Program-made: the position numbers and the translations under genes | Shown here: positions 612 through 9,288 of the stretch, piece after piece | Numbering within the stretch: the stretch's first letter is position 1 | Layout of the letters: every line of letters starts with the position of its first letter | The notes under the pieces: model-generated | Databases searched by the model: none | The model's input: only the letters and a program-made list of their open reading frames with translations | Told to the model about the DNA's origin: nothing | From: a virus | Lineage: Duplodnaviria > Heunggongvirae > Uroviricota > Caudoviricetes | Length of the DNA stretch: 17,443 bases | IMG/VR virus record: IMGVR_UViG_2698536519_000009 | Reading direction: 5' to 3' (one strand)

Positions 612-1280
612 ATGGTGAAATCAATGAAAAAAAACACAGATGATGGGGCTAAAATTTACACACCACTTACCCTAAAGCTTTATGACTGGTGGGTTTTGGG
701 AGTATCAAATCGGCTTGCATGGGGATGTCCTACAAAGGAACACCTTCTTCCACACTTTCTGGAACATGTAGGTAACAACCATCTGGATATTGGTGTTGGA
801 ACTGGGTTTTACCTTACTCACGTACCTGAGAGTAGTCTGATATCTTTAATGGATTTGAACGAAGCTAGCCTGAACGCGGCATCTACAAGGGCTGGGGAAT
901 CAAAAATTAAACATAAAATTAGCCATGATGTTTTTGAACCTTATCCCGCGGCGTTACATGGTCAATTTGATTCCATTTCCATGTTTTACCTTCTTCACTG
1001 CCTGCCTGGAAATATATCTACAAAAAGCTGTGTAATACGCAATGCGGCGCAGGCCTTAACTGACGATGGAACTCTATACGGAGCCACAATTCTTGGCGAT
1101 GGAGTTGTGCACAATAGCTTCGGTCAAAAACTGATGCGCATTTACAATCAGAAAGGCATCTTTTCAAACACAAAAGATTCCGAAGAAGGCTTAACACATA
1201 TACTCTCAGAGCATTTCGAGAATGTTAAAACCAAGGTTCAAGGTACTGTAGTAATGTTTTCCGCTTCAGGGAAAAAATAG
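612..1280 (+). CDS. Class I SAM-dependent methyltransferase (small-molecule/protein type rather than DNA methyltransferase); cargo gene
   Basis: 222-aa ORF with Rossmann motif I LDIGVGTG, acidic post-I residue (LMDLNE) and motif II/III-like FDSISMFYLLHCLP. An alternative start at 624 (MKKNTDD...) has better spacing to GGTGA. GC content is clearly below the flanking tail genes. Its position next to tfa fragments recalls the ybcY methyltransferase pseudogene of the E. coli K-12 DLP12 prophage (from memory, unverified). Confidence 0.75.
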   Translation: MVKSMKKNTDDGAKIYTPLTLKLYDWWVLGVSNRLAWGCPTKEHLLPHFLEHVGNNHLDIGVGTGFYLTHVPESSLISLMDLNEASLNAASTRAGESKIKHKISHDVFEPYPAALHGQFDSISMFYLLHCLPGNISTKSCVIRNAAQALTDDGTLYGATILGDGVVHNSFGQKLMRIYNQKGIFSNTKDSEEGLTHILSEHFENVKTKVQGTVVMFSASGKK

Positions 1281-1320: not shown

Positions 1321-1500
1321 CATAATCCCAATGATTACTCCCTGACAGGGTTCGTAGGCCACTCAATATCAGGTGCAGTTGATGTATCAACACGGTTCAG
1401 CAACACCCGATACTTTTTCCAGGCTTCCAGCAATGAGGTTTCTTCCTCCGTTGCAATTTCCAGATCTGCAGCATCCTGAAGCGGCGCAATATGCTCACTG
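1288..1500. repeat. Direct repeat copy B (~215 bp): hairpin plus 3' end of tfa
   Basis: Partner of 238..451. Together the two copies bracket the methyltransferase gene and its divergent promoter region. Confidence 0.8.
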
Positions 1501-1919
1501 GCTACCTGCATCAGGTTGTTTTTTGTTTCTTCCGCCTCCCGGATCCGGAACAGTTTTTCTGCTTCTGCATCTTTCACCCAGGTTGTGCCGTTCCACTTCT
1601 GAAACTCCCCTTCCGGCGATAACCAGGTAACATTTTCCGGTAATAAGCCGAGTTCAGAAATAAATAACGCGTCGCCGGAAGCTACGTCATAAACCGTTTT
1701 ACCCCGATGATCTTCAACGAGATGCCACGATGCCTCATCACTGTTGAAAACAGCCACAAAGCCAGCCGGAATATCTGGCGGTGCAATATCGGTACTGTTT
1801 GCTGGCAGACCTGTATGAGGCGGAATATATGCGTCACCTTCACCAATAAATTCATTAGTTCCGGCCAGCAGATTATAAATTTTTATGGTCCGTGCTTGTT
1901 CACTCATTCTGAATGCCAT
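1335..1919 (-). CDS. tfa: Tail fibre assembly protein Tfa
   Basis: 194-aa [57 protein letters not shown]..., strongly resembling the Tfa proteins of E. coli cryptic prophages and lambda Tfa. Translationally coupled to stf. Confidence 0.9.
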
Positions 1920-4900
1920 TATGCAAGCCTCACAATATAGTTAAATGCGATGTTTTTGACGGTGTTTTCCGCGTTACCAGCAGCGTTAACGGTGATGGTG
2001 TGTCCATGTGAACCAATCGCAACGGAGTGCGTATGTGCACCAATACCTACAGTATGTGCATGTGCGCCAGAACTTGCTGCAGTACCAGACAGCGAGTGGG
2101 TATGAGCACCTGCTGACTGTGTCTGAATACGTTGATAATACGATCTACGGGAAGAAGTCCCCGGGCTTACTTGATACTGTGAATCCTGGACATAAGTGAA
2201 CCCACCGCCATCATAAAATGCTAACGCAGAACCGCCGCCTCCTGGCCAACGAATACCATTACCATGAGTATGATCACCGGCAGACCCCGTAGAGCCACTC
2301 AGACTGTGCGTATGCGCCCCGGTGTTATTCGTGGATTTAGTGCCGTAATCAAACGACGATGTGGTTTTCGTCCCCAAATCCGTACTGGATGCGCTGGCGC
2401 TGTGGGTGTGCGATTTAATGCCGTCCTGTTCCTGAGACAATACGGCTCGATCACTGGCGGGCTTGCCCTTAATCGTCCAGCCACGCATATCAGGAATAAC
2501 GCCTGACGGATAAGCCACTGCAAGTTTCGGGTAAGCAGATTTGTCAAAAGTCTGCCCCTGCATCAGGGCATAACCAGACGGAACGGTATCTGATGGCCAC
2601 GGGATTGGTGCACCGACTGGGTAACTTTCTGGTGGAAGATTTTTCGAGGTATAAACTTCTGCCCAGTCTTCCTCAAAACCATAACCGTCTCTTGAAGAAC
2701 GGTAGAACAGACCACCATTTCTGTAATGCGCCTTCATCTGCAGGGTCCGGCAACTTCCGACTCCGGTATAGAAGTTAACCAGAATATAGCTGTCGCCAGA
2801 GCGGGTGACATTGTAAGCGCCTGATTCGGCATTCCAGGGAACGCCACCATCCGCATCGGCATATGTATCCGTTGCCCTTCTGGCAAAAGCAGCCACATGC
2901 GCAGCGGTTAAAGTAATATCTCTGGAACCATCAAACTCAACACCAGAAACCAGTCTTGGCGTTTGCAGCTTTGTTGCTGTTAATGCATTACCGTTCAGAC
3001 TTGCGGACAGTTTGGTTCCAATAATCAGTTCGCCGGTTGCGTTATCAATAGCAACCGGTCTTAATGTATTCCAGCCACCATAAACATCACCTTGATTGGT
3101 AAGCAGCAGGTAAGTTTTAGCGCCATCATTACGCCATAATGCCCCATACTCCCCACCTATCATTCGAATCTGATTACCACCACGCGCTACAATTTCGTCT
3201 GTGGCAAAAAGTTTTTTGCACGACAAGTTATCGTTAACGATTAACGAATGAGACTCATAAAAACCACGCCCACTCTTAAAATCAAGGATAACGTCCGCCG
3301 CGATACATTCAGTCGCTGGATTTGTTGCCCCAAACTTATAGGTCGTATCATTAACAACGAGATCAGCACCAGGTGCGGATATTGACAGGCCATCTTCGAT
3401 AAACGCAAAAACAGGGAAAGCAGCGCCATCAACATAGAACACAGAGCGCAAATCATCGCCCTTATTACTCATCATTATTGAGTGGATGGCTCGTTCATTG
3501 TTTTGATATTGCCAGAACATTCCATAAGCATAACGCCCCCTGTCAGTCCAGCCACCAGGCATAACAAATCCGTTAAACTCGCAGTTATTCATCGGATCGC
3601 CTGCGGTTCGCGTTGCCGTGGTGATAATGACCCTTGATGCCAGTTCGCTTACTGAGCCAGCAGAACGCATAACAACAACAGGGTAATATTTTCCAGATGT
3701 TGCACCTGCAGGAGCGTTAACCCGCACATAACGCATACCACGCTTATCAGCAAAGTCTGTTTTACTGACCGCGTTAATGTTGTTCAGGAAGCGTCCCTTA
3801 TCGGGTATATCAGCGCCGTTCTGGTCTTTCTGCAGACGTTTCTCTGCATTGTCATAGGCTGATTTTACTGCCTTTGGCGTTGCCGCCAGCGTTTCAGACG
3901 TACTGTTGGTCGCACTGCTGAGCTGTACTATCCCCTTTTTCGTCGTACTTGCATCCTCAAGCGCCACGGCGGATGCAATATCCTCTGCCCGTTTTGCCGC
4001 TGTCTCAGCGCGCGTTGCTGCGGATTCCGCCGTACTTTTGCTCTGAGCTGCCGCCGTCGCACTGCCAGCTGCCTCTGTCGCCTTCGTGGATGCCGTCGTG
4101 GCGCTGCCCTTCGCTGCTGACGCCTGTCTGGTCGCCTCATCTTTTGAAGCAGACGCCGATGATGCCGATGACGCCGCCGAACTGGCGGACGATGCGGCAG
4201 CCGTTTTTGAGGATTCTGCGCTGGTCTCCGACGCTTTCGCGTTCGTCTCGGATGTCTTCGCTGCCTCTTTTGAGGCCGCCGCACCCCGTGCCGAGGTGGC
4301 AGCTTCTGACGCCTTCGTGGTCGCTGTGGATGCAGAAGTGGCTGCCGATTTTTGTGATGCTGCGGCATTCGTTTCTGACGTTTTCGCGGCACTGGCGCTG
4401 GTAGCTGCCGCGCTTTTTGATGACTCTGCAGCAGCAGCACTTTTTGATGCCTCAGAGGCTTTTGCTGATGCCGTTCCTGCGCTGGAAAAAGCCTCCTGAG
4501 CCGACGTCGCGGCCTGTCCGGCTGACGTGCTGGCTGCACGTGCTGAGCCTGCAGCATCAGTCGCATGGGTTGCCGCCTCACGGGCTGATGTGCTGGCATC
4601 GCCGGCTGACTTCTTCGCGGCTGCCGTGTTCTGTGCCACTGCGGACGCGTTACGCGCCACCTCTTCCACCATCTGCTCAAAGCGGCGCAGTGCCTCCGGT
4701 CGGACATCATCCTCCGTCATGGCACCGAGAAAATCATTCAGCGTACCTGGTCTGGAACCTTCATAGACGGTAATGGTCCCGGCATGTGAAGGCGGAAAAC
4801 CTTCAACCAGCAGGGTGACGCTGTACTGACCATGCTCAACATCCATGCTGTAACGTCCGGCTTCATCCGGATTTTCAGAGGCCACCGTGTTCACCACCAC

Positions 4901-4996
4901 CGTGCTGCTGGTTCGTCTGGCCTTCAGCACAATGGTGCAGTTCTGTACTGGTTTTCCTGTGCCATCTTTAAGCACGCCAGAAATTTTTACTGTCAT
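1919..4996 (-). CDS. stf: Side tail fibre protein Stf (mosaic: conserved N-terminal domain, Ala/Ser/Thr-rich repeats, divergent central domain, conserved His-rich C-terminal domain)
   Basis: 1025-aa ORF. N-terminus [28 protein letters not shown]... and C-terminus ...[40 protein letters not shown] match lambda Stf from memory, as does the [24 protein letters not shown] motif. Stop TAA overlaps the tfa ATG (TAATG). Confidence 0.9.
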
Positions 4997-5007
4997 ACTT
5001 TTCCACC

Positions 5008-5043
5008 AATAAAAAAAGCCCGCAGCAGTGACGCCACGGGCTT
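5008..5043 (-). terminator. Putative intrinsic terminator downstream of lom
   Basis: On the minus strand, stem aagcccg/cgggctt (5016-5022 with 5037-5043) is followed by UUUUUUUAUU (complement of plus-strand 5008-5017). The loop is long (14 nt). The stf RBS GGTGGA and ATG follow immediately. Confidence 0.5.
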
Positions 5044-5147
5044 CAGGACAGTGTAACTTTACGTTTCCTCAAACGCAGTTCACCCCATAAGGTGGATGAA
5101 CCTGCGTATCATAACAATATTTACAGAAGATAAATCGGCGTCTGTTG

Positions 5148-5747
5148 TCAGAAACGGTATCCGATACCAACAATAAATGCATCCGTTCGCCAGTCGCCAC
5201 TACCGGAACCTTCATAAGCAAGGTCAATGGTCACGGATTCGGTCGGGTTAAACTGCACGCCAGCCCCCCACGCCAGAGACGTGTTGCTGTGGCGACCGTC
5301 ATCACTTCCGGTCAGCACATCGTGCGTTTTCCCCTTGTTGTCAATTACGCGGAGATAATCCCCGGAGAAAGTCGACACACGGCTGTAAGCCACACCCGCC
5401 ATCGCATACGCGCTGAACCATTCATTCACGCGTACAGACGGCCCCGCCATCACGCTGAACCAGCGGTTACGCACGGAATCTTCATGCCAGCGGGTATCGC
5501 TGTAGCGCGTTTTTTGCTCATCCTCAGCATTGGCATAACTGAAGGACGTAATCAGCCCCAGCGCGTCCGTAAACTCATAACGGTATTTCACGTTAATCCC
5601 GTTCAGATCATCACTACCGGGAACGTTCGTCGAGGCATGGAGATACCCCGCGCTCAGCGTGGACTGATGTTCTGCTGCACTCGCTGGCGTAGCAGCGGCG
5701 ACCTGCCAGACTACTGCGGACAAAATAACAGCACATAATTTACGCAT
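5148..5747 (-). CDS. lom: Lom-family outer membrane beta-barrel protein (Ail/Lom/PagC/OmpX family), lysogenic-conversion moron
   Basis: 199-aa ORF with a signal peptide (MRKLCAVILSAVVWQVAAATPASA|AEH) and the family-typical C-terminus ...DLAYEGSGSGDWRTDAFIVGIGYRF, as in lambda Lom. Lies between J and stf, as in lambda. Confidence 0.88.
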   Translation of the reverse strand: MRKLCAVILSAVVWQVAAATPASAAEHQSTLSAGYLHASTNVPGSDDLNGINVKYRYEFTDALGLITSFSYANAEDEQKTRYSDTRWHEDSVRNRWFSVMAGPSVRVNEWFSAYAMAGVAYSRVSTFSGDYLRVIDNKGKTHDVLTGSDDGRHSNTSLAWGAGVQFNPTESVTIDLAYEGSGSGDWRTDAFIVGIGYRF

Positions 5748-5771
5748 AATTACCTCTCGCTTTTCTGCAAT

Positions 5772-5796
5772 AAAAAAGGCGCCATTTCTGGCGCCC
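5772..5796 (-). terminator. Putative intrinsic terminator between the J stop and the lom start
   Basis: ggcgcc atttct ggcgcc hairpin (5778-5795), followed on the minus strand by a U6 run (plus-strand A-run 5772-5777). Located 19 nt after the J stop and ~25 nt before the lom ATG. Confidence 0.6.
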
Positions 5797-5814
5797 GTAT
5801 CTGGGTTATAAAAT

Positions 5815-8800
5815 TCAGCTAATCGTGATGCCTGCAGTGGCTTTCTTCATCACCACAACCAGCAAATCGCTGATACTTGCTGTGGGATACCAGTTATTTA
5901 CCAGCCATGCTGACACCGAAAACTCCAGTGTCATGTGACCGTGACCGGCAGGCATATCAATAACACCACTGTAAATCAGCGTATTATCCAGCGCGGTACG
6001 GTTATAAATTTCAGCACCGTTTTTCCGCACTATCAGACGGCATGAGGAGTAAATATCAGTATGCTCTTTCTCATGTTTAGCGCCGCTGAATGCCACCGCC
6101 GGAATAACAATCTGCCGGTCAAACGGCTGATCGTCATAAACCCTGACGGTAATGGTTCCTGATGGCCACCGCTCCGGTGCACGGGAGTCCCGGGGGAAAG
6201 CTTTGCCCACTGTTTTAACGAGATCGCCTTCAATCTGGTTCGCGGACAATTTTCCCAGAACCCGACAGTTCTCGTTAATCGTGACGTTGTTGAGCGTCCC
6301 GGAGTTCGCATTCACGTTACCGCTGATATCGGCATTTTTCGCCGTCAGCCGCCCGTCCGGTGTCAGGGAAAATGCCGGAGGATTACCGCCGCTGGTAATG
6401 GTGGGAGCCGTCAGATATTTCAGGAACACTTCATTCATAAATATCTGATCGCCCTGACCAACAAACATCGGCTTTGTGTTGCCATTCGCAGGATTAATCA
6501 TCGCAATCCTGTCTGCCGCCAGCAGCACCTGACTCTGCATTCCTGCTGGCGTATTCTCAATACCGGCACCGATACCCGCAATATAAAGGCGTCCGTCCTG
6601 CATCTGCTGCAGTTTCACGGCCCACATGCTGTTCAGGTTATTATTTGTATCAACCTGAACTTTCTGTATCTGCTGGATTGCCGCACTCTGATTTTCCAGT
6701 TTTTTATTGACGGTCTGCGTGATTTCATTGCTGACATTCGTAATGGACGTCCTGATTTCAGCCAGGTCCGGCGCAAGCTGACCGTTATCAATCTGCGTCC
6801 ACAGCTCCTGGGCCAGATGTGTTTTCCCGATTTCTCCTTTGAAAAAATCCAGGTAACCTTCCGCATCATCGCTCGCCCGACCGACAGCCTCCACGAATGC
6901 CGATTTGCCAACAGTATTCACACTGCGGATATAAAAATAATAATCATGGCCCGGTTTGATATTGATACTGGCAGCTATCCAGTACAGCGCCGAGCCAAGA
7001 TAGCGGGCTGCGGTTTCAACCTGCCTGATATCCGCAATCCGCTTTTCCGAGAACCAGAACTCAAACTGTACCGTCGGGTCATAAACGGCAAGATGCGGCG
7101 TGGCGGTTATCTGAAAATAGCCCGGCGTCAGCTCAATCCGCGACGGTGCTGCCGGTGCGGCAATCCGGAAGGTGGTGGTGGCAGGTTCACCCTGCTGGCC
7201 ATAGCTGTTTATCGCCCGCACCGTCAGGGTGTATTCCCCGAGCGGCAGGCCGCTGAAACGGTGCTCCGTGTCTGCGGTGATGGCGGTGGTCACCAGTCTG
7301 GCATCCGTTCCCTTACCACTGGTCAGGCGCAGACTGAAGCGCACGCCCTTCACCACCCGCGGCGTGTCCCATTTAGCCTGCGCCAGATACTGGCCGTCAG
7401 CTGCGCTCACCTCCACCGTCAGGTGCTGTACTGCCGGTGGGATGACGCTGTTCAGGGAGCCTGACTGCGGCTCAAAGCGGGCACCGTTATCCACGATGGC
7501 TTCTTTTTCCGGTACGTGCTGCACCGCCGTGATGGCAAAGGTGCCGTCCGTGTTTTCCCGGATGGAGACACAGCGGAACAGGCGACGGCGCAGTGACGGC
7601 AGGGAGAGTCCCCACACCCCGTATGTCTCCACACCATCAGGCAGGGTACTGACCTGTATCCGGTCCGGCGCGGGGTGTTCGGTGATGTCCACACTCACCG
7701 GCTTACCGCTGCCGTTAATCAGGTTCACCGTGGCGGCACCGGTCTCCGGAAGTGTCACTTCACGGTCCAGCGTCAGGGTGCGGGTGGCAGCATCAATGGA
7801 CAGGACACGTCCGCCGGTCAGAGTCCCGGCATAGTCGTTATCACAGATTTCAATGATGTCACCGGGTGTGTGCCGCAGCCCCTGAGACCCGAGCGTGAAA
7901 TCCACCGTCTGCGTTTCCAGCAGTTCAGTCTTTATCACCCACAGTCCGGCACGGTGGGCCTGACCGCGGCTGGTACAGCCGAACGCGTCCATCTTCAGCA
8001 GGTTGCGTCCGTAGCGCAGTATGGCTTCCGGGTCTTCCACCAGTTCCGTGGAGGTCTGCCAGCCGTTCTGCGGGTCGGTGTAATTCACCTCCACCGCCGT
8101 GTGCCGGTCCTTCAGGGCACTGAAGCTGTAGCGGAATCCCACGCCGTTATCATCCACCACCACATCGCTGTTGGTGTACGGCCACACCACATCCGACGGG
8201 CGGTCCTGAACGAACGTCAGCGTCTGACCGTTCCATACCGGCATACAGCGCATCGCAGAGCAGAAATCACTGAGAACGTCCCACGCCTTACGCTGTTGTG
8301 CCAGGTACGCATTAAAGGTCATCCGCGGCTCTGTCCCCCCGAAACCATCCGGGACCGTCTGGTCGCAGTACTGCCCGATGGCATACAGCGCCCACTTGTC
8401 CACATCCGCCGCCCCCAGACGTTTTCCCATGCCGTAGCGCGGGTGAGTCAGCATGTCCCACAGGCACCAGGCCGGGTTGTTGCTGTATGCCGGTTTCAGA
8501 CTGCCGTCCCAGATACCACTGTACGTGCGTTTTTCCGGGTCATAGTTTGACGGCACCTGGATGATGCGACCGCGGATATGGTAGTTCACCGTCATCTGCT
8601 GGCCGCCGAACTGCTCCGCATCCACCTGCAGCCCCACAATGGCCGTGTTCGGGTAGCACTGTTTCACATCGATGATTTCGGTGTATGACGACCACAGCGT
8701 CTTATTCTGCAGCTGGTCCGTGGTGCTGTCCGCCGTCTCCCGGACCATCCGGATGTTAAAGGGCCGGGGAGGCAGATTATCCAGAATCACCGAGGCCAGG

Positions 8801-9288
8801 AACTGTGAGGTGGTCTTGCCGTTAATGGTGACGTCCTTTTCCGTCACCCAGCGGCCATTACGCTGTAACTGAATCAGAATCCGGACAGAGGAAGGATTAC
8901 GGTCGCCCTTTGACGTGGTCTGCACCAGTGACTGCACCCCGAAGGTAACCCGCAGGCGGTCAATGTTCGCGGACGTAATGGTGCGCGTCACCGGTTTTGC
9001 CTTCGTCACTTCCACGCCCAGTCCGGTTTCAGCTCCGGAGGACTCAAAGCCTTCCGGTGGTGTCTGCTCCTGCTCCCCGGCGCGCCAGACCGCCGTCACA
9101 CCGTGTATCACGGGATTGCCGTCCGTGTCCGTCAGTGGGGTTTTGTTCACCAGAATACTCTGCAGTCCCTTCACCGGACCTTCTATCGGTCCCTCACCAA
9201 TCGCATCAATCACACTCATCATCTGCGTGGATTTGAGATTATCCTTCGCCTCACGAGGCGTGTGTGCCTTACCGCCACCTTTTCCCAT
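5815..9288 (-). CDS. J: Central tail fibre / host specificity protein J
   Basis: 1157-aa [42 protein letters not shown]...; the N-terminal ~750 aa are highly similar to lambda gpJ. The coiled-coil-like region and C-terminal ~150 aa are divergent. RBS AGGGGAAGG precedes the ATG. Confidence 0.93.

Follow-up and report, generated by a model that had tools for sequence, protein, structure and literature searches.

Does lom, which lies between the tail genes J and stf with a hairpin on each side, form a transcription unit of its own, or is it a passenger in the late operon that surrounds it? The question is raised by a 17,443 nt stretch of DNA from a tailed phage (IMG/VR record IMGVR_UViG_2698536519_000009), the whole of which is here called the window. 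An initial annotation had described lom as a moron that is packaged as an insulated unit between two minus-strand terminators.

Gene layout of the J-lom-stf junction

The minus-strand ORFs of the window span 17153 to 1335. The features that are needed here are listed from J to tfa.

5815–9288, minus strand: J, tail tip attachment or host specificity protein, 1157 aa (from the ORF list and Pfam); stop codon at 5817–5815
5797–5814, minus strand: 18 nt spacer from the J stop to T1, ATTTTATAACCCAGATAC, holding a −10-like TATAAC with no matching −35 (from the sequence)
5769–5796, minus strand: T1, predicted intrinsic terminator; stem-loop at 5796–5778 (GGGCGCC-AGAAAT-GGCGCC), then the T-run TTTTTTATT at 5777–5769
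5748–5768, minus strand: lom leader, GCAGAAAAGCGAGAGGTAATT, 21 nt, with the Shine-Dalgarno sequence GAGAGG at 5758–5753 (from the sequence)
5148–5747, minus strand: lom, predicted Ail/Lom family outer-membrane beta-barrel protein, 199 aa (from Pfam)
5045–5147, minus strand: 'type I' lom 3'UTR, approximately 87 nt longer than the lambda-type spacer, with a hairpin that has no U-run at 5107–5073 (from folding)
5008–5044, minus strand: T2, predicted intrinsic terminator; stem-loop at 5044–5015 and the T-run TTTTTTTATT running to 5008
5008–5768, minus strand: lom cassette, 761 nt, present or absent between relatives and made up of the RBS, lom, the 3'UTR and T2 (from comparison with phage 21)
1919–4996 (1919–5007 with the Shine-Dalgarno sequence), minus strand: stf, side tail fibre, 1025 aa, ATG at 4996 (from Pfam and the sequence)
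1335–1919, minus strand: tfa, tail fibre assembly protein, 194 aa, the final gene of the operon inside the window (from Pfam)

The J product includes the complete lambda gpJ domain set, with the Pfam families Ig_J, FNIII-A_GpJ, Phage-tail_3, Phage_Tail_Tip and Ig_GpJ_C each matched at E ≤ 1e-31. The lom product matches PF06316 (Ail_Lom) at E = 4.8e-124, with 412 bits against a cut-off of 23 and residues 1–199 aligned to positions 1–199 of the 199-position profile, and it has a second match to PF13505 (OMP_b-brl; E = 4.9e-21). Its N-terminus, MRKLCAVILSAVVWQVAAATPASA, looks like a signal peptide by eye and its C-terminus ends in GYRF. From the profile match, it is predicted to be a full-length Ail/Lom protein, in agreement with the family given in the initial annotation. 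The stf product begins with phage_tail_N, the prophage tail fibre N-terminal domain (E = 1.4e-70), and also matches Gp34_trimer, Phage_fiber_2 and Collar; the tfa product matches Caudo_TAP (E = 4.8e-44). The Shine-Dalgarno sequence of stf, GGTGGA at 5007–5002, directly adjoins the T-run of T2.

The late genes are co-linear on one strand in the lambda-type order terminase-head-tail-J-(lom)-stf-tfa. A prophage of O104:H4 that is 99.9% identical to the window over positions 4850–5950 has a co-oriented cluster that runs from the terminase small subunit through J and lom to a truncated stf, and the reading of the region as a late operon fits this one-strand gene order. The Q gene and pR' lie outside the 17.4-kb window, and the relatives are lambdoid (Stx-converting phages, VT1-Sakai and PhiR49_2). 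When the 1.1-kb interval around lom was used as a query, matches were found in 203 phage records, mostly of Stx-converting and other lambdoid phages, and in 4799 of 5426 complete E. coli genomes, at up to 14 places per genome. Identity was as high as 99.9% with prophages of O104:H4 and other strains, in which the gene is annotated as Ail/Lom (RefSeq). The interval is an ordinary one, a J-lom-stf junction of the standard lambda type in a lambdoid prophage of E. coli, and its architecture is already known and is found in thousands of E. coli prophages.

Comparison with lambda (NC_001416, positions 18903–19650) revealed the same gene order and strand, J-lom-stf (orf-401), with a hairpin and T-run between J and lom and a second that ends 11 nt before the ATG of stf (orf-401). 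After J, lambda has CGTCCGGGAACGGGCG (stem CGTCCG-GGAA-CGGGCG) plus TTTTATTAT, and after lom it has GCCCGCCGGAACCGGTGGGC (GCCCGCCGG-AA-CCGGTGGGC) plus TTTTTT. The lambda lom leader, AAAACAGTGAGAGGTGAACG, is homologous to the leader in the window (AAAA.G.GAGAGGT). However, the Lom proteins are only 43% identical, the T1 stem of lambda (CGTCCG/CGGGCG) is unrelated in sequence to that of the window, and stf is frameshifted in laboratory strains of lambda. The two also differ in the lom-stf spacer, of which there are two types among the relatives: the long type I of the window is 151 nt, whereas the short type II of lambda is 64 nt. Tandem terminators beyond J (the t'J sites) were reportedly mapped in the lambda late rightward operon by Luk and Szybalski in 1983 (Mol Gen Genet), and these would presumably correspond in kind to T1 and T2, which we take as a lead and not as a result.

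The type I spacer is present in 1606 E. coli genomes, in which it is nearly invariant and always unannotated; one of the carriers is EDL933 (NZ_CP008957, 2297515–2297616). The hairpin at 5107–5073 was considered as a conserved RNA and rejected, as changes without compensation disrupt the outer stem in L197, the one divergent copy examined. A search for known RNA families in 4500–6500 returned no Rfam match at E ≤ 1. The small RNA 24B_1, described as lying between lom and vb_24B_43, was set aside because it belongs to Phi24B, where vb_24B_43 and not stf follows lom, and the paper that describes it states that lambda lacks the sequence in the corresponding region.

Boundaries of the lom cassette

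A homologue of T1 lies directly between J and stf in relatives that do not carry lom, namely phage 21 (OL657228) and the IMG/VR loci L142 and L144; the T1 of L142 is a compensated variant (GGGTGCC/GGCACC). From the J stop through ATTTTATAACCCAGATACGGGCGCCAGAAATGGCGCCTTTTTTATT, phage 21 and the window have the same sequence, and the depositors of phage 21 annotate a terminator at the junction (19195–19222), followed directly by the stf RBS. With neither lom nor a second terminator, phage 21 represents the state without the cassette. With the boundary marked by a slash, its junction reads ...GGCGCCTTTTTTATT / TGTGGAGTGAATATG(stf), or in longer form ...TGAATTTTATAACCCAGATACGGGCGCCAGAAATGGCGCCTTTTTTATT / TGTGGAGTGAATATG, matching the window through the T-run of T1 and then continuing with the stf leader. 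The window reads ...GGCGCCTTTTTTATT / GCAG...lom...GGGCTTTTTTTATT / GGTGGAAAAGTATG(stf). When the lom-less junction was used as a query, at least 80% of it was covered in one place in up to 688 of the 5426 complete E. coli genomes, and the best ten E. coli matches were single-piece, 100% identical and annotated as gpJ next to tail fibre.

The cassette is flanked by a direct repeat, TTTTTTATT, found at 5777–5769 and 5016–5008 in the T-runs of the two terminators. Because this repeat bounds the segment on both sides, the T-runs of T1 and T2 contain the end-points of the insertion or deletion, and which of the terminators came with lom can be decided by linkage only. Variants of T1 track the allele at the 3' end of J. 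T2 tracks the 3' end of lom together with the stf leader, and distant lom alleles have a T2 region almost the same as that of lambda. As T1 is present where lom is not, it would be the terminator of the J-stf junction and is no component of a lom package. From this linkage, T2 evidently travels with lom, and T1 evidently belongs to the J-stf junction. The proposal that lom is packaged as an insulated unit is thus not supported on its upstream side, where J-T1-stf occurs in phage 21, L142, L144 and many E. coli genomes.

Promoter searches upstream of lom

lom is a recognised moron and has been reported to be transcribed in lambda lysogens (PMC3594210, PMC7067206, PMC1151598), and such expression would imply a promoter somewhere. 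However, a microarray study left lom undetected in a lambda lysogen and noted that 'little is known' of its promoter (PMC2147009), which makes lysogenic expression itself a condition-dependent premise. In the literature that we could reach, the lom promoter is described no further than by the statement that it is unknown.

A classical moron consists of a promoter, an ORF and a terminator (PMC3594210). Applied to this locus, that model would make lom a self-contained, insulated moron, with a sigma-70 promoter of its own over the 3' end of J, T1 as its upstream insulator, T2 as its own terminator and, in the lysogen, transcription that is independent of the late operon. The reported transcription in lambda lysogens favours such a model, and the initial annotation had concluded that the promoter must overlap the 3' end of J. 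However, a consensus scan of the minus strand from 4700 to 6300 found no sigma-70-like site. Five divergent relatives (lambda, the window itself and members of three other J-allele groups) were also scanned with a position weight matrix over the 600 nt that precede lom; the best scores, 8.0–8.9 bits, are approximately at chance level and fall at positions that are not conserved. With nothing in either scan that exceeded chance or kept its position, the 3' end of J was rejected as the site of a sigma-70 promoter. By analogy with pagC, PhoP boxes were also sought; with three mismatches allowed there were 35 matches against 25 ± 5 expected, and none was suitably placed upstream of lom.

The geometry of the junction also argues against the insulated model. 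T1 begins 18 nt past the J stop and ends 21 nt ahead of the lom ATG (5747), and a promoter would not fit into these 21 nt. One inside J would have T1 downstream of it; its transcripts would meet a strong predicted terminator before reaching lom, and T1 would attenuate lom rather than insulate it. That T1 exists without lom is a further point against it.

The spacer that follows the J stop holds the −10-like TATAAC 7–8 nt upstream of the hairpin. This motif is conserved in most of the relatives that carry lom, and to this extent it favours a promoter at this place. It has neither a −35 nor the conserved T at position 6. As a −10 specific to lom it seemed at first to be absent from the lom-less L142, but the spacer of phage 21 is identical, and there the same sequence precedes stf; it was therefore rejected in this role.

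Morons were defined by Juhala et al. (2000) for HK97 and HK022, with HK97 gene 15 as an example (summarised in PMC3594210). Like those, the lom unit is additional DNA that separates two genes which related phages have side by side, J and stf being adjacent in phage 21, L142 and L144. It also carries cargo of benefit to the host, lies inside the tail operon and has a factor-independent terminator of its own downstream, since T2 is within the segment that is present or absent. It differs in that no promoter was recognised in the sigma-70, position-weight-matrix and PhoP-box scans, in that the upstream 'insulator' is that of the recipient junction, and in its base composition, which is not atypical (53–56% GC in lom against 47–63% in the flanking 300 nt segments). 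The unit matches the textbook idea of a moron but fails on two of the classical features tested, promoter and base composition.

We conclude that the claim of a lom promoter is unsupported and that the cassette appears to have none that is recognisable by simple sigma-70 models, although a non-canonical promoter is conceivable. The insulated moron model as a whole, with its own sigma-70 promoter and two flanking terminators, is unlikely. What may be new here is modest: a cassette that appears promoterless and is bounded by T-runs, and a T1 that is independent of lom.

A different arrangement, which we regard as distinctly unlikely, would have recombination between the two terminator T-runs add and remove the cassette, with lom transcription in the lysogen starting at a non-canonical site next to T1, for example at TATAAC. 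The T1 hairpin would in that case form the 5' end of the lom mRNA and serve as its attenuator or 5' stabiliser, not as an insulator. If this were true, lambdoid phages would exchange morons at terminator T-tracts in general, with these tracts as the docking sites.

Conservation of the hairpins and transcription of the junction

Terminator-like sites number 22 in the whole 17.4-kb window, a modest excess over the 15.9 ± 3.1 expected from shuffles. T2 ranks first and T1 second among these, and the two intergenic gaps beside lom, the only ones there, are taken up by this pair. On the opposite strand both lack a T-run, which would make them unidirectional, acting on the coding (minus) strand. Conservation was counted in a set of loci drawn from IMG/VR and GTDB genomes.

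By the count of the folding tool, the T1 stem has eight pairs (six GC), including A-U and G-U closing pairs, and a GAAA loop. Its minimum free energy is −15.7 kcal/mol (z = −3.21), and none of 200 shuffles folded as well. In a 171 nt fold from the 3' end of J to the 5' end of lom, T1 was the sole centroid structure and no competing antiterminator fold was found. A T1-type hairpin and T-run lies just upstream of lom in 168 of 169 related lom loci (30 of 31 distinct leaders), the single exception being the chromosomal ail of Yersinia. In an alignment of 14 distinct T1 variants (A2), 99.1% of cells in the stem form standard pairs, and four of the eight pairs show compensatory double changes (C:G to U:A, G:C to A:U, C:G to U:A and A:U to U:A), in addition to one G-U intermediate. 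The covariation score was reached by none of 500 shuffles, and sliding the 3' partner as a control reduced pairing to only 35–61%. The U-run is invariant in the same alignment (T23–T28). The loops differ among relatives (AGAAAT, AGGAAT, TCAGGA and CGAAGT), and L158 keeps the stem but has an inverted loop, ATTTCT. These compensatory changes indicate that the T1 stem is under selection for pairing. In another locus, L002, a deletion has an end-point at the 5' edge of T1.

The T2 stem has 12–13 pairs (7 GC of 13), and its minimum free energy is −20.5 kcal/mol (z = −3.59), again with none of 200 shuffles folding as well. A hairpin and T-run that ends 11–15 nt before the stf ATG is found in 149 of 154 stf loci (25 distinct leaders). 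T2 has two forms, that of the window and a lambda-like form, GCCCGCC-GGTTCA-GGCGGGC. Where T2 sequences differ, L197 included, the stem is retained and the loop is changed, with little covariation in what is a closely related sample. With its stem kept and its loop variable, T2 appears to be maintained by selection. IS200-family insertions lie exactly after the T2 T-run in three loci (L047, L080 and L093).

A GC-rich stem-loop followed directly by a U-run on the transcribed strand, the sequence signature of an intrinsic terminator, is present in both T1 and T2. By this signature they would be real and conserved intrinsic terminators, and it is from the signature that we infer termination itself; the invariant U-runs argue that termination is the function under selection. 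In this respect the initial annotation is borne out: two minus-strand terminator hairpins, distinguished by their folding z-scores, rank and conservation, flank lom on the coding strand where they had been placed, and the gap from the upstream one to the lom ATG is indeed short. The one correction is that the T2 hairpin begins at 5044 and not at 5043.

The hairpins might instead serve mainly as stability or processing elements in an antiterminated polycistronic late mRNA, where, by impeding 3' exonucleases, they would determine the relative half-lives of its J, lom and stf-tfa segments, with T1 perhaps a 5' stabiliser of lom mRNA and termination secondary. It is established for lambda that Q-modified polymerase ignores terminators, so in lytic growth the hairpins could act at the RNA level only; compensatory changes in a stem fit any role of the RNA, and T1 persists in lom-less phages between two late genes of one operon. 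However, the perfect U-runs directly 3' of both stems are a signature of termination for which an exonuclease barrier would have no need, and we give such a main role little credence. As an additional role, stability is compatible with the explanation that we prefer (below) and does not exclude it.

That the two elements are functionless by-products, either linker sequences at module junctions or recombination scars, is scarcely credible: several independent rearrangement end-points do fall at them, among them the lom insertion or deletion boundaries in the T-runs, the IS200-family insertions after T2 and the L002 deletion at T1, but the compensatory substitutions at three T1 stem pairs besides the loop-closing pair and the G-U intermediate speak for selection on pairing, stems persist while loops vary freely (to the point of inversion in L158), and the position before stf is fixed at 11–15 nt in 149 of the 154 loci.

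The explanation that we consider probable, taken as a whole, is that a promoterless lom cassette, consisting of the RBS, lom, the 3'UTR and its own T2, lies precisely within the T-run of T1, a J-stf terminator that was there before it, and is transcribed by Q-dependent read-through in lytic growth. Late transcription of lambda yields a single Q-dependent mRNA of 27 kb, made by a terminator-resistant polymerase (PMC10695390). On this paradigm, Q-modified polymerase from pR' would pass both T1 and T2 in lytic growth, so that J, lom, stf and tfa would be expressed from one late mRNA, while polymerase without the Q modification would be stopped. In the repressed prophage, T1 would shield lom and stf from stray transcription of the silent morphogenetic operon, and T2 would keep any transcription that covers lom in the lysogen from expressing the side tail fibre genes. 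Any lysogenic expression of lom would come from a weak, non-canonical or factor-dependent start, or from leakage through T1, rather than from a recognisable promoter inside the cassette.

Two further claims of the initial annotation can be judged from here. Expression of lom had been said to be decoupled from late tail transcription; since antiterminated polymerase would transcribe lom along with the rest of the late operon that surrounds it, lom would not be decoupled, and the one microarray study cited above gave no lom signal in a lambda lysogen. The dependence of stf-tfa on read-through of two terminators fares better. It is supported that transcription from upstream would reach stf-tfa only by terminator-resistant RNA polymerase, which fits the lambda Q paradigm (PMC10695390), but the dependence does not hinge on lom, since with T1 present in lom-less junctions stf would need read-through with or without the cassette.

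A mobile unit that has a terminator but no recognisable promoter, together with the gap in knowledge acknowledged in PMC2147009, poses a small testable question, namely where lom transcription starts in lysogens. More broadly, the region illustrates how a lysogenic-conversion gene can be accommodated inside a silent late operon without switching on the neighbouring structural genes. The principle is an established one, known from lambda lom and bor and from morons in general, so that the import of the present locus is likely to be little beyond housekeeping.

Distribution of the type I lom 3'UTR

In the window, lom is followed by the long form of the lom-stf spacer, which contains the following feature:

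5045-5147 (-), type I lom 3'UTR

Relative to the lambda-type spacer, the type I lom 3'UTR includes approximately 87 extra nt, among them a hairpin at 5107-5073. It was found in 1606 of 5426 E. coli genomes, including a single copy in EDL933, and the identity was at least 99% in 1566 records. In none of the 1606 E. coli genomes carrying copies has it been annotated.

Rearrangements at the lom flanks

The prophage at the related locus L002 (270-1484) is defective. Through a deletion, a gene for a Nu1-like terminase small subunit has been joined to T1, the terminator between J and lom, at its 5' edge, generating an uninterrupted 404-aa reading frame that passes through T1 and on into lom. In a further locus, L087 (approximately 2700-3000), the final four lom codons (…SSRYRF*) are joined to a major capsid protein-like ORF, and the type I 3'UTR, T2 (the terminator between lom and stf) and stf are all still intact downstream. 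This fusion is another decay product.

The T1 homologue in L158 is GGGCGCC-ATTTCT-GGCGCC. Its loop matches the usual -AGAAAT- exactly when reverse-complemented, which suggests that the palindrome was inverted via template switching.

An IS200/IS605-family element is present in L047 (3153-3865), and likewise in L080, L093 and L127. It includes the following ORF:

L047 3246-3755, TnpA-like ORF

The insertion point lies exactly between the T-run of T2 (GGGCTTTTTTGTG|CACAG...) and the stf leader, and the element supplies a hairpin (CCTCCGGCTATGCCGGAGG with ATATTTATT) directly 5' of the stf RBS.

The region beyond tfa and tandem tail fibre genes

Two features were found past tfa in the window:

1288-1320, 11-bp perfect hairpin (CCGCAGCACGT ... 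ACGTGCTGCGG)
612-1280 (+), SAM-dependent methyltransferase-like ORF, 222 aa (Methyltransf_12, E=4e-9; Methyltransf_23; Methyltransf_25)

The hairpin sits in the 54 nt that separate the end of tfa (1335) from the convergent methyltransferase-like ORF, and no U-run adjoins it on either strand. The ORF, which lies just past tfa in the opposite orientation to the tail operon, may be a further cargo gene at the prophage end.

In L116 and L117, a second, divergent stf N-terminal domain (approximately 44% identity) is found at approximately 5689-6028, about 2.7 kb 3' of the first. Thus, these prophages have two tandem tail fibre genes.

Lambda lom in public assemblies and mosaicism of the lom coding region

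Lambda lom was also present in L171-L183 and similar loci, all with the same 42% similarity to the window Lom. These contigs have low coverage, do not exceed approximately 48.5 kb, and come from assemblies labelled Neobacillus, Kitasatospora, Pseudomonas, Shewanella, Bradyrhizobium and others. Lambda lom in these public assemblies is almost certainly contamination by lambda control DNA.

The coding region of lom was compared with its flanks using the window (5148-5747) and the related locus L001 (466-1150). The lambda and window Lom proteins share only 43% identity, but the 3'UTR and T2 of lambda lom barely differ from the corresponding sequences 3' of lom alleles that are approximately 90% identical to that of the window. 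This pattern of sequence identity argues that the lom coding region has been swapped separately from its flanks, probably via the conserved C-terminal codons.
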